A DNA stretch of 64,000 nucleotides from Chloroflexota bacterium (GTDB lineage Bacteria; Chloroflexota; Dehalococcoidia; Lucifugimonadales; JADFKI01). Shown here piece after piece: positions 20,889-34,542 of this stretch. The DNA lies in the NCBI GenBank assembly GCA_027623195.1, contig JAQBUT010000002.1, positions 96,001 through 160,000 on the forward strand, read 5' to 3'. The position numbers were made by a program, and so were the translations under genes. The notes under the pieces are model-generated. The model was not told the DNA's origin, did no database searches, and saw only the letters and a list, made by a program, of their open reading frames with translations. The stretch's first letter is position 1, and each line of letters starts with the position of its first letter.

Positions 20889-20960
20889 TTTCTTTTGGGT
20901 AGACGGCTTTGGGAAAGAGTTGTGGCAAAACGTCGCAACACATAAAGGGGAGTCAACGGC

Positions 20961-21713
20961 ATGGGTAGTGAGGCGTTTGAACGGCACATCTCTCTGGAAG
21001 GCGCGTACAACTTTCGCGACCTGGGCGGCTATCGCACGAACGATGGCCGGACTGTCAAATGGCGGAGCCTGTTTCGGAGTGGCGAACTTCACCTCTTGAC
21101 CGATCTGGATGTGTCGCGGTTGCGAGGTGAACTTGGTCTAACCACGGTTTTGGACCTGCGAACCACGGACGAAAGCGACGCCGGGGGCATGGGGCAATTG
21201 CAAAATCTAGGGGTTCAACATCACAGCCTACCTTTCACTGCCAGTCTAGCCGAAGATTTTAATTTGCTTCAGGCAGTTCAAAACATGGGAGAGTTTTATA
21301 TTGAACTCACTTCTCGAAAGGCTTTCGGAATTAACCTGCTGGAGGCGCTCAACTTGATTGCCGATCCTCATAATCACGCGCTGACCTTCCACTGCTCTGT
21401 TGGCAAAGACCGGACCGGAGTTTTGGCGGCCATTCTGCTCGGAGCGTTGGGAGTGCCTGACGAGGAGATTGTTGCCGATTATGAGCTGTCGCAGGCGGCA
21501 ATGGACTCGATAAACCAGAGAATTATGGCAGACCCCGTTAGATCAGAACGCAACAGGCTGTTGCCCAATTTCACCCAAGAAGCGGCACCAAAGGCCATGC
21601 GAGTTTTCCTGTCTTCCTTGAGGGGCGAATACGGTTCCATGCGCGGTTACGTCGAAGCGCAGGGAGGGGATGATGCCTTGTTTCAGCAACTGGAAAACGT
21701 GCTTTTGGAGTAG
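20961..21713 (+). CDS. Tyrosine-protein phosphatase family (IphP/PtpB-like)
   Basis: NFRDLGGY, HCSVGKDRTG P-loop and ADYELS. Confidence 0.92.
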   Translation: MGSEAFERHISLEGAYNFRDLGGYRTNDGRTVKWRSLFRSGELHLLTDLDVSRLRGELGLTTVLDLRTTDESDAGGMGQLQNLGVQHHSLPFTASLAEDFNLLQAVQNMGEFYIELTSRKAFGINLLEALNLIADPHNHALTFHCSVGKDRTGVLAAILLGALGVPDEEIVADYELSQAAMDSINQRIMADPVRSERNRLLPNFTQEAAPKAMRVFLSSLRGEYGSMRGYVEAQGGDDALFQQLENVLLE

Positions 21714-21748
21714 CGGCAGCTCTTATCAGGCGTCGACGGGTCTGCCAT

Positions 21749-22537
21749 TTATCCAGCGCCCTCATCTGAGTCTGGAGGGAACCCTTCGTTTTCAGTGAGT
21801 AAATGATGCTTCAAACGGTCCAGACGTCCGCTAATGGTCATGTCTACTAGCGTGTCACCCGTGCGAATAGAAATGCCTCCCAATACCGATGGGTCGACCT
21901 TATAGAATGTCCTTACCTCCCTCTTAGCCATTTGAGCCAGAAAGTCGGATATCTGCTTCTCCTGGTTGGCGCTCATCGGGACCGCCGTGGTGACAATCGC
22001 GAACCCAATTGATTTCCTAGCTGGAGGTTCCCACGTAAGTTTCGACAGTTCCTCGGTCGCCTCTGAAAGGAGTTTTTGTTGCTCCTCTTCATCGAGTGAT
22101 CGTTGCAGTGAACGCTCTGCTGCGGCCATAACCAGCTCTACAAATGAGTGGTGCAGGTCCTGATACGCCAGTCTGCTTTCCTGGCGCAACTGATCCTTGG
22201 TCCGCTTCAATTGAGTCTCGGCTGCTTTGCGGGCCCGCCTAAGTCCATCTTGCACATGTCTCTCAGCCAACTCTTCGGCGGCTCGAAGCAGGGCGTCCCC
22301 TTCCCTGCGCGCTTCGGTCAACAATTCCTTCCGAGTTCTGACCGCCTCGTCGGTGATGTTACTGGCGTCTTCTTTATTCGCCGCCCACGTTTTCTCCTCC
22401 TCAGCACGCGTCTTTAGTTTCCGCATAAGTGGTTTGAAGGCAAGCAGGTACAACACCCCCCAGAGTACCAGGAAGTTCACGGTGTATATCAGCAGGCTGG
22501 GAAGGTGGACTCCCAGCCGTTGCAGCGTGTCCAACAT
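21749..22537 (-). CDS. F0F1 ATP synthase subunit b fused to the delta C-terminal domain (orphan paralog)
   Basis: b-type N-terminus (VNFLVLWGVL...FKPL), coiled coil, then delta C-terminal motif VTTAVP...VDPSVLGG...VDMTISGRL. Confidence 0.8.
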   Translation of the reverse strand: MLDTLQRLGVHLPSLLIYTVNFLVLWGVLYLLAFKPLMRKLKTRAEEEKTWAANKEDASNITDEAVRTRKELLTEARREGDALLRAAEELAERHVQDGLRRARKAAETQLKRTKDQLRQESRLAYQDLHHSFVELVMAAAERSLQRSLDEEEQQKLLSEATEELSKLTWEPPARKSIGFAIVTTAVPMSANQEKQISDFLAQMAKREVRTFYKVDPSVLGGISIRTGDTLVDMTISGRLDRLKHHLLTENEGFPPDSDEGAG

Positions 22538-22539
22538 TG

Positions 22540-23442
22540 CTAATTCCCGTTCTTGGATGTTGCTTCATTGTTGCCTTCGGCGACGACCATCAGCACCACA
22601 GTCAATCCCGCAAACACAAAAGCCTGTAGAGTTCCGAGCAGTATTTCCAAACCGTAGAATGGGACAACCAGCATCAAGGGAGTCAAGAAGGAGATCACTA
22701 TTCGCAGCAACTCACCAGCAGTTAGAGCTCCAAACAAGCGGAAGGTGAAACTAAACAATCTTGCCAGGATGGTGATGTCGTGTAGAACTGCTGCGAACAT
22801 CTTAACCAGACCAGCCAGCGGCTTCCCCCTTATGAGGCTTTGAATGGGGAAAAATTGCCTAAAATAAACGATCCCTTTAGTTCTAAATACGTGAAGCTCA
22901 ACAAATATACCAGTAACAATTGCCAACGAAAGAGGCATGTTAATGTCGGTCCCCGCTCCTCGCAACAAGGCAAACGTCCCTTCTGCGCTGTCTGGAGATT
23001 CAATCAACACCGGGCCGTAGACCGGCAAAAGCGTAATCCAGGCGTTGGCGGTTATGAAGAGAAAAAGTGTCGCCACGAAGGAAAAGGTCACGATGGAATA
23101 CCGCTCTCCTGCGATTCCTTTGAACAGCCCCCAAAGGGACTCCAGGATAATGTCAACCGTTCTCCGGCTTTGCGGGAACACGCGGCCGCCAGGCCCAATA
23201 GCGAAGCCTATCAGTCCGATGAGGATGAGCGTTGCCAGCCAGGAAGATAGGATAGTGTTGGTGATCGCGAAAGAGCCGATCGTATATAAAGTGTCGGCTT
23301 GCAGGTGAATTGTGGGGGGCGGTACCAGTTCCTTTATGCCGAAAATATCTCTTGCCAGCAAGCGAAGAAGTACGCCTCCAACGCCGGCAATTACGACGCA
23401 TAGAATAGAGACCTTTACCAGGGTACGTCCGGTAAATATCAA
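22540..23442 (-). CDS. atpB: F0F1 ATP synthase subunit a (divergent orphan paralog)
   Basis: ITNTILSSW, TLFLFI, TDINMPLSLA, FRLFGALTAGE and GLE...LQAFVF. Confidence 0.85.
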   Translation of the reverse strand: MIFTGRTLVKVSILCVVIAGVGGVLLRLLARDIFGIKELVPPPTIHLQADTLYTIGSFAITNTILSSWLATLILIGLIGFAIGPGGRVFPQSRRTVDIILESLWGLFKGIAGERYSIVTFSFVATLFLFITANAWITLLPVYGPVLIESPDSAEGTFALLRGAGTDINMPLSLAIVTGIFVELHVFRTKGIVYFRQFFPIQSLIRGKPLAGLVKMFAAVLHDITILARLFSFTFRLFGALTAGELLRIVISFLTPLMLVVPFYGLEILLGTLQAFVFAGLTVVLMVVAEGNNEATSKNGN

Positions 23443-23622
23443 CAGAAATACCTAAAATGCGATACGTCCGACTTCCACGTAGGGAATTCCGAGCTTTAAC
23501 CGAAATTGGCCGAGTGGGTCGTTGACGATTGAAGAAGTCAATCGCCTAGTCTTTTGCCAGAATGTTAAGGTCATGAAGGCCGCGATACAAATGGCAAACG
23601 CTGGCAGGCGTCACGCGCGCCC

Positions 23623-24507
23623 TCAGATTGCGACCGCCTCCAAAGCCGCCATAGGCCCGTGTCGCAGTATTGTGGCCAACTGGTCGCGGTCCATGACCAG
23701 CAGCTCCCCGGCGAAGCCCAGCGCGTTTATCGAGATGCCTTCGAAGTGCTCGCGGCTGCGGGGCACTAGCATCATCCAGCGTAGCGTAGCTAGCAAGTTG
23801 TACTTTCTTCTCTCATCAGACGCTTTTCCCAGTCCAACGCCGTCCAATAAGGCTGCGTAATTTTCAAGGAGCATATTGCCGGCCTCCGATATGGACAGAG
23901 TGTCAATCCCATCCAGCATGGCTATGCAGTGCTGAAACGATAGCATCGGCGATTTCCATATCCCGGTTGTTATTGCTGCGGCATCAATGGCCGTTTCGAT
24001 GGGCACGGGCGGCCCATTTGAGTTCAGCGGCAGCGGCACTATCTGAAAATGCTTGTGGCGCTGGCTGGCACCGGCGACCTCCCCTGCGTTGTAGAAGGCC
24101 AGACCATCGAACTCCTGCATGCACGCCCACAGGGCTTCGAAATCTGCCAGCCTTAGTGACGAAGTTTGCTCTTCGAAAACTCGCGTAATAATTAGCAAGT
24201 GGTTGTTGACAACCGGGAACTTGTTCAGGATGGCCACGTGGGTCTCTGATATATCGGCGACGAACAGGTCCTGGTCGTACGGCAGAAAAGGGTCGAAGTC
24301 CGGCGGATGGACCTCGGGGTTAGCCTCATGCGCCTTGAGGGCCAGGCTGGACACCACCCGAACGTCGAAGGCTATACCCTGGTCCTCCACGGTCTCTCGC
24401 GTAGTCTCGATTGGCCGCAGCGCGCCTCTTTTGATAGCCTGCCGAGTGCTATTTTCGATGGCGCGCCACAGCGTCCCGGCCTGGAGGGTCAGTCTGCTAT
24501 CAGGCAA
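23623..24507 (-). CDS. ATP adenylyltransferase / Ap4A phosphorylase II (HIT-like)
   Basis: DPFLPYD, LNKFPV, FYN...AGASQRHKHFQ and SINALGFAG. Confidence 0.9.
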   Translation of the reverse strand: MPDSRLTLQAGTLWRAIENSTRQAIKRGALRPIETTRETVEDQGIAFDVRVVSSLALKAHEANPEVHPPDFDPFLPYDQDLFVADISETHVAILNKFPVVNNHLLIITRVFEEQTSSLRLADFEALWACMQEFDGLAFYNAGEVAGASQRHKHFQIVPLPLNSNGPPVPIETAIDAAAITTGIWKSPMLSFQHCIAMLDGIDTLSISEAGNMLLENYAALLDGVGLGKASDERRKYNLLATLRWMMLVPRSREHFEGISINALGFAGELLVMDRDQLATILRHGPMAALEAVAI

Positions 24508-34454: not shown

Positions 34455-34542
34455 GGAGGGGTGGCCGAGAGGCTTAAGGCACCTGTCTTGAAAACAGGCA
34501 TACCGAGAGGTATCGCAGGTTCGAATCCTGTCCCCTCCGCCA
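34455..34542 (+). tRNA. tRNA-Ser (anticodon UGA)
   Basis: GGAGGGG/CCCCTCC acceptor stem, CCTGT-CTTGAAA-ACAGG anticodon arm, long variable arm, GGTTCGAATCC, G discriminator and encoded CCA. Confidence 0.97.

Follow-up and report, generated by a model that had tools for sequence, protein, structure and literature searches.

The H+/ATP ratio fixes the lowest membrane potential at which ATP can be synthesized and has been treated as set by the size of the c-ring. In 2025, extra stators were shown to alter this ratio, once in an engineered enzyme and once in a constitutive natural one, according to the available text of the two reports (PMC12229609, PMC12002316). For the FoF1 of Bacillus PS3, delta's N-terminal domain was described as lying on the three-fold axis and restricting the enzyme to one stalk, and removal of delta residues 2-104 was reported to give up to three a-b2 stators and stalks (Ueno et al. 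2025, PMC12229609). In the multi-stalk enzyme, H+/ATP rose from 3.0 to 5.8, the equilibrium pmf fell from 133 to 68 mV and pumping activity was lower, while up to three a subunits were reported to fit one c10 ring (PMC12229609). The F1Fo of Chloroflexus aurantiacus was reported to have two stalks, with the sheet of each delta C-domain anchored on an alpha barrel (Zhang et al. 2025, PMC12002316). N-ATPases were proposed to be standby enzymes at low potential in a preprint whose available part also surveys b-deltaC fusions and short deltas (bioRxiv 10.64898/2026.10.01.756066). The locus described here pairs a paralogue of subunit a with a b-deltaC fusion.

Organization of the locus

The window analysed is a 64,000-nucleotide stretch of a Chloroflexota genome (assembly GCA_027623195.1, contig JAQBUT010000002.1, positions 96,001 to 160,000), in which the following features were assigned.

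22540..23442, minus strand: a', an atpB paralogue of 300 aa with six hydrophobic segments as in host subunit a (PF00119, hydropathy)
21749..22537, minus strand: b'-deltaC fusion, 262 aa (PF00430 and the C-terminal part of PF00213)
22040..22537, minus strand: b domain, residues 1-166 (alignment, AlphaFold model, hydropathy)
21788..22009, minus strand: delta C-terminal domain, residues ~177-250, corresponding to host delta ~106-179 (alignment, fold matches)
22738..22740, minus strand: codon of Arg235, the arginine of the gate (R210 in E. coli, R249 in C. aurantiacus), which all 26 a' keep
22726..22728, minus strand: codon of Ala239, which replaces the inlet-end Asn (N214 in E. coli, N253 in C. 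aurantiacus) (alignment)
22780..22782, minus strand: codon of His221, which replaces the outlet Glu (E196 in E. coli, E235 in C. aurantiacus) (alignment)
20908..23626, no strand: segment comprising a phosphatase gene and the module, absent from the syntenic position of the two genomes of the same genus

The a' gene starts with TTG, with AGGT 7 nt upstream, and ends in TAG; 2 nt (CA) separate this stop from the b'-deltaC start codon, ATG. An earlier sequence-only reading had described atpB followed after 2 nt by a b subunit carrying only the C-terminal part of delta, with no atpE in between; this was confirmed by the frames, the 2-nt gap and matches to PF00119, PF00430 and PF00213. The unrelated flanks that it named were also found, namely a tyrosine-phosphatase-family gene (PF13350) and an Ap4A phosphorylase gene (PF19327). 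In profile searches, a' scored 78.7 bits against PF00119 (cut-off 33.9) and 60.1 bits against TIGR01131, which is under the cut-off of 102.6. Residues 16-145 of b'-deltaC matched PF00430, and residues 145-246 matched only positions 73-172 of the 172 in the PF00213 profile. Both this partial match and the alignment to host delta place the delta N-terminal domain outside the fusion.

The b domain contains one membrane helix and aligns end to end with host b, and a linker of ~10 residues joins this full-length b to deltaC. The AlphaFold model of b'-deltaC (mean pLDDT 87.8) consists of a long helix up to residue 147, a short helix at 150-166 and then the delta C-domain, which superposed on known delta C-domain folds with an rmsd of 1.4-1.7 A for the nearest (68-69 columns) and 3-5 A for the others. 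The model of a' was of low confidence (mean pLDDT 65.7, weak around 241-264), and it is for this model that the best structural match was C. aurantiacus subunit a (Foldseek E 1.5e-11, TM 0.64/0.73). Sixteen delta C-domain columns are at least 85% conserved in 20 housekeeping copies; five of these are invariant in 23 fusions and several further columns are conservatively kept, the exceptions being G105, K135 (mostly Arg) and G162. Position G162 is Ala in 19 of the 23 fusions and likewise in the single b-deltaC of an Anaerolineae operon (L095). In the subclade of the window, the b' tether (residues 44-56) carries an acidic E47-E48, whereas it is hydrophobic in housekeeping b and in the other subclade; these residues might make host b a more favourable partner than a second b'.

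Distribution and genomic context

Loci were classified for 95 distinct a genes on retrieved DNA. The a gene is followed by c in 89, is cut off in one of unknown context, and is directly followed by b'-deltaC without c in five, namely the window, L006 (same genes as L035), L036, L038 and L104. The survey of other genomes that the sequence-only reading had proposed thus yielded conserved homologous units. In all five loci a' and b'-deltaC abut or overlap, and none of the five contains a gene for c, alpha, beta, gamma or epsilon. No neighbour gene is common to the five loci; the flanks of the other four are PNPOx-like and MFS genes, AsnC-like and tRNA synthetase genes, Usp and sodium:sulfate-symporter-family genes, and ZIP-like and cupredoxin genes.

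Among database proteins, 26 a' and 27 b'-deltaC sequences fell into FastTree clades with support of 0.996 and 0.999, and the fusion layout is identical in all. Gene context is known for 5 of the 26 a' proteins, the counts for the other 21 referring to protein sequences only. A further a'/b'-deltaC pair, with accessions that follow one another, comes from a contig of 5,002 bases that bears the label Deltaproteobacteria and may be misbinned, and three more candidate pairs are suggested by members on equal-sized contigs (2033, 3105 and 8362). The module was found in 3 of 401 genomes of the class. The unpublished genome G302 enters through the tallies given here and supports no other claim. Full-length, in-frame matches were present in at least 2 of 401 genomes of the order and in at least 2 of 401 genomes of a class sample that overlapped the former to a large extent, among the best 150 matches listed in each.

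The five upstream regions shared no element, sigma-70-type sites upstream numbered 0 against 1.4 expected, and no Rfam match was found near the module. The sole Rfam match within the window is a tRNA at 34455-34539 (plus strand). The module was carried by none of 68 candidate stretches in viral contigs, and only one partial delta match was obtained among 72,556 plasmids.

Origin and selection

In IQ-TREE analyses of subsets, all 13 a' sequences formed one clade (100/99) within Dehalococcoidia housekeeping a, and all 8 b' sequences formed one clade (96/97) on long branches inside a Dehalococcoidia b clade (100/98). A recent duplication of the host's own a was rejected, as the a' clade is not sister to the housekeeping a of G000, G320, G050 or G458. 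A transfer of the fusion from Anaerolineae-type b-deltaC genes was rejected from the grouping of b' with Dehalococcoidia b; the b' clade also stands apart from Anaerolineae-type and TIGR03321-like fusions. The simplest history, we infer, is that one a-c-b-delta copy lost c and the delta N-domain and then spread or was patchily retained.

Codon models were fitted to the five module loci and to five housekeeping a and b genes. The omega values were 0.042 for a' and 0.021 for b'-deltaC, compared with 0.034 and 0.015 for housekeeping a and b, and since synonymous sites were saturated only the direction of omega is reliable. An omega of 1 was rejected, with twice the log-likelihood gain amounting to 477 for a' and 359 for b'-deltaC. 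The dN/dS check proposed in the sequence-only reading therefore returned purifying selection. The module is real, conserved, rare and under such selection.

The peptidase gene and the Ap4A phosphorylase gene lie side by side in both genomes of the same genus, where the intervening 2.7-kb segment is missing. The GC content of the segment is 0.524 versus 0.593 and 0.573 on its flanks, which is within the lowest 7% of 1,070 genome windows. Its absence from both relatives together with its low GC suggests that the segment was acquired, the alternative being loss in both relatives. The tyrosine-phosphatase-family gene (20961-21713, plus strand) lies inside this segment and converges on the module. 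It is probably a passenger, as it is not beside the module in the other four loci. Elsewhere in the window, a stretch of ~40 nt at ~27620-27660 matches many places in two other genomes (G006 and G004) at 85-98% identity and is possibly a small intergenic repeat.

The host ATP synthase

The host genome, which is 87% complete, contains on contig C42 the complete atp operon that the sequence-only reading had suggested looking for, in the order I-a-c-b-delta-alpha-gamma-beta-epsilon and with a full-length delta of 179 aa. Family searches of the genome found two a genes and one c gene. With a complete operon elsewhere and a second a gene, a split operon was rejected. Three PF00006 matches were obtained, corresponding to alpha, beta and a weaker one that we take to be Rho. 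Identity to the host copies is 28% for a' and 27% for the b part of b'-deltaC. The names attached to homologous sequences indicate that the host probably belongs to Dehalococcoidia.

Gln, Ser and Thr are missing around the Glu of the single host c, which presumably leaves it with no Na+ ligands. A sodium switch was rejected on this basis, and a change of coupling ion is unlikely. Each of the four genomes with the module (host, G050, G320 and G458) has a second a beside a single c, and alpha; L104 is a metagenome contig and lies outside this genome-level check. Since each of the four has a single c gene, it is soundly inferred that the module works with, and depends on, the housekeeping c-ring and F1. 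To this extent the earlier proposal of a swappable stator that could dock on the housekeeping enzyme was supported. Its swapping part fared less well, because loss of the delta N-domain permits extra stalks and therefore favours adding a stator over swapping one.

Two observations concern other atp loci. At L004, a regulator gene (2167-2793, opposite strand; PF06971 and PF02629), presumably Rex-like, adjoins the end of the housekeeping operon. In a same-family genome (G021), a second full atp operon of very different sequence type was found on contig C3 (L161:2234-4551), which is probably a contaminating contig; the third, weak a-like match in G021 belongs to this ordinary operon and was set aside.

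Channel residues of a'

Residues named for C. aurantiacus and E. coli were located in a' by counting from the gate Arg, with Q273 of a' taken to be E. coli Q252. The motifs LHDITIL, RLFGA and LQAFVF reported in the sequence-only reading are all present as stated, and in the window Asp222 is still found one residue past the lost outlet Glu. The comparison set consisted of 33 columns at least 95% invariant in 89 operon a copies, and the counts that follow are descriptions rather than tests, as kin are not independent. R235, R228, E244 (the inlet Glu, +9), D166, N168 and Q273 are kept in 26 of 26 a', and E266 in 25 of 26. The least-kept columns were S224 (1/26, with Thr in 15), N239 (5/26), Q93 (8/23), E221 (10/26), P89 (11/23) and E97 (14/23). 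The inlet-end Asn (+4) is thus present in 89/89 operon a versus 5/26 a', where it is replaced by S (9), A (7), T (4) or V (1), and the outlet Glu (-14) in 89/89 versus 10/26. Position 221 bears an acid in 13 of 26 a'. The outlet helix segment (residues 217-230) is without any acid in 8/26 a' versus 0/89 operon a.

None of the 26 a' retains both the outlet Glu and the inlet Asn, where ~2 would be expected if the two were independent, a difference that is not significant alone. Of the nine a' in the subclade of the window, one has the outlet Glu, and none has the Asn or the Glu at -10. The three marks of a housekeeping subunit a (outlet Glu, inlet-end Asn and a following atpE) are all absent from the window's a', which has His221, Ala239 and no atpE. 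From these residues, the gate and the periplasmic entry of a' appear to be preserved while both channel ends facing the c-ring glutamate appear to be weakened. Three ordinary-looking a subunits (P0015, P0051 and P0087) carry Lys at +9, where the inlet Glu normally stands, and Lys at this position recalls alkaliphile-type a subunits. For E. coli, His at E196 was of intermediate activity and changes of N214 were among the milder ones (PMC6377231), while synthase activity was lowered 11-fold by E196Q and 15-fold by E196L (PMC9447477).

Proposed function and alternatives

The module is very probably an accessory stator on the host enzyme; this high figure covers three readings, because a brake and a replacement stator would share docking with an added stator. 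At close to an even chance, we hypothesize that a' and b'-deltaC attach to the housekeeping ATP synthase as an additional stator, which would conduct protons more slowly and roughly double H+/ATP. More tentatively, the module may be a portable two-gene gear shift, moving horizontally and added on demand, that would double H+/ATP with the c-ring and F1 unchanged. The proposal is built on the observed gene content, conservation, Dehalococcoidia atp operon origin and missing delta N-domain, and on which channel residues are retained and which are not. As the module amounts to one complete stator minus the copy-limiting domain, and the sole rotor and head are canonical, the addition of a slower, tightly gated stator is favoured.

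Mechanistically, b'-deltaC would dimerise with itself or with host b and anchor a' in the membrane. DeltaC would then take an N-terminal barrel of alpha left free by the host delta C-domain and, having no N-domain, need not compete for the single central site. The a' subunit would meet a free face of the c-ring and, since its Arg gate is intact, each passing c subunit would exchange a proton. The equilibrium pmf would be about halved, so that under weak energisation synthesis would continue and reversal to hydrolysis would be delayed. The weakened channel ends of a' would slow turnover. Against an added stator, the available text of Ueno et al. doubts stable binding by deltaC alone, and deltaC was there fused to alpha (PMC12229609). 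It also counts against this reading that multi-stalk function needs no loss of the Asn or Glu, as the natural two-stalk enzyme keeps both. The lack of any a' with both residues, the acid-free outlet segments and the activity losses of E. coli E196Q and E196L also count against it, and the milder E. coli changes (His at E196, and N214) count in its favour.

A rotor brake is considered rather unlikely. Here the module would still be an extra stator, conducting little or nothing, in which Arg would hold the c-ring glutamates and stall both synthesis and wasteful hydrolysis as a membrane-side counterpart of F1 inhibitors. S224, N239 and E221, the c-ring-facing proton-transfer sites, are three of the four least-kept of the 33 invariant columns, and the window's subclade is nearly devoid of the outlet Glu, the Asn and the Glu at -10. 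Even wild-type extra a subunits lowered pumping activity, by the available account (PMC12229609). Opposed to this, the periplasmic-side E244, E266, D166 and Q273 are nearly invariant, which fits an inlet in use although it may be structural, the substitutes of N239 are small rather than bulky, S224 is mostly T, and half of the a' proteins (13/26) retain an acid at 221. The gear shift and the brake overlap, as a slow second stator would both lower the reversal potential and damp turnover.

A replacement stator is also unlikely. In this scheme, a' and b'-deltaC would displace a, b2 and delta on some F1-c-ring assemblies, like the subunit-a isoforms of V-ATPases, and two or three copies of the module could be accommodated because the delta N-domain is absent. 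The module supplies exactly the three stator parts (a, b and deltaC), no clash with the delta N-domain would arise, and P89, Q93 and E97 in the cytoplasmic loop may have drifted because a' pairs with b' and not with host b. The a-c-(b-deltaC) operons at L095, L097 and L101 likewise have a b-deltaC and no free delta, and N-ATPase b-deltaC fusions are described as serving without free delta in the available text of two reports (PMC4154653; bioRxiv 10.64898/2026.10.01.756066). Set against these points, host a, b and delta would be hard to turn down separately since they share one operon with c and F1, and an enzyme relying wholly on weakened a' channels would be slow.

It is improbable that the module acts outside the finished enzyme, by sequestering c-rings, alpha or host b during assembly or within another membrane machine. 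Docking is here predicted from sequence, and the acidic E47-E48 of the tether would suit such a role, but the deltaC core is conserved jointly with the helix of a' that faces the c-ring, and the five loci offer no shared partner gene. A decaying duplicate, the alternative raised in the sequence-only reading, or an assembly artefact is very improbable, for although the proteins evolve faster than the housekeeping copies, are patchily distributed and have omega values made rough by saturation, both frames are intact in 5/5 loci at 33-57% identity to the window copies, one fusion layout runs through the 26 a' and 27 b'-deltaC, and decay is refuted by omega values (0.04 and 0.02) far under 1 together with distinct, supported clades.

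If the second-stator proposal is true, the stand-alone cassette would be an in vivo switch of stator number and a 1.7-kb part for tuning ATP yield. With the gear shift, the F-type coupling ratio would become a regulated plug-in property and no longer a species-fixed constant; with the brake, the module would be a membrane-side inhibitor of F1Fo.

Comparison with known systems

Every part of the module has a precedent, and what is new, as far as the literature was searched, is the free-standing a and b-deltaC cassette beside an intact operon. No description of such a cassette was found in that literature, which mostly excludes subscription papers, and loci of this kind may be listed in the supplements of one preprint (bioRxiv 10.64898/2026.10.01.756066, Figs S1/S3).

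Like the module, N-ATPases (TIGR03306, TIGR03321) have a b with a long C-terminal delta-like extension that replaces delta and are always additional to the main ATP synthase; unlike it, they come with c, alpha, beta, gamma, epsilon and atpR genes of their own, according to the available text (PMC4154653). Against these two models the module scored 23.4 of a 302.1 cut-off and 58.2 of a 224.7 cut-off. An N-ATPase remnant was rejected, as these scores are far under the cut-offs and the genes nest in Dehalococcoidia housekeeping clades, in trees that held b-delta proteins with TIGR03321 as best model under its cut-off and no certified N-ATPase sequence. The mycobacterial b-delta fusion retains an N-terminal delta portion. 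It resembles b'-deltaC in having b and delta in one chain and in its deltaC fold (PDB 7nkd and others), but is ~430-445 aa long and located in the sole operon.

Fo-only operons of the type a-c-(b-deltaC, 244 aa), with no adjacent F1 gene, were observed in Anaerolineae/Thermoflexales (L095:4522-6903, L097 and L101). In G460 and G783 a beta gene lies on different contigs, and the search of G459 gave none. If these are the only F-ATPase, they have no delta N-domain and would be a natural multi-stalk candidate of separate origin. In two Patescibacteria operons, a 70-aa gene between b and alpha matches the delta C-domain only (L099:5593-5805 and L100:9824-10036).

The yeast V-ATPase isoforms Vph1p and Stv1p likewise are paralogous a subunits on one rotor, there with differing coupling efficiency; they belong to a V-type enzyme and are described as one-for-one replacements with no accompanying stalk in the available text (PMC3164464). 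Extra Fo genes away from the main operon are also known as the ectopic atp duplicates 'Sa_eryHe' (double a) and 'De_oleHe' (double a-c-b'-b) (PMC4154653 Table 2). These differ in being species-level and in holding a alone or with c, with no pair of a and b-deltaC and no conserved family in the part of that report available (PMC4154653).

Close parallels are also the two multi-stalk enzymes. In the engineered delta(deltaN)-alpha FoF1 of Bacillus PS3, delta is trimmed to its C-terminal domain at almost the same position (leaving 105-178, against ~106-179 of host delta in the module) and the stator count is released from the limit set by the N-domain, which was shown there and is predicted here from genes alone (PMC12229609, available text). 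There, deltaC is joined to alpha, stands in for delta in all enzymes and brings in wild-type a (PMC12229609), whereas in the module deltaC is joined to b, in a cassette apart that includes an altered a, and full-length delta is kept. The C. aurantiacus F1Fo comes from the same phylum, provides the best structural match to a' and has two a subunits per c10 ring, where the second stator of the module is predicted from its genes (PMC12002316). It differs, as described in the available text, in being constitutive, in its single operon, two identical stalks and delta N-domain dimer, and in keeping the outlet Glu and inlet Asn (PMC12002316). A stalk anchor without a canonical delta N-domain, one of the features by which a multi-stalk F-ATP synthase is recognized, was found in b'-deltaC, and the module would act like one stalk of such an enzyme rather than as an N-ATPase.
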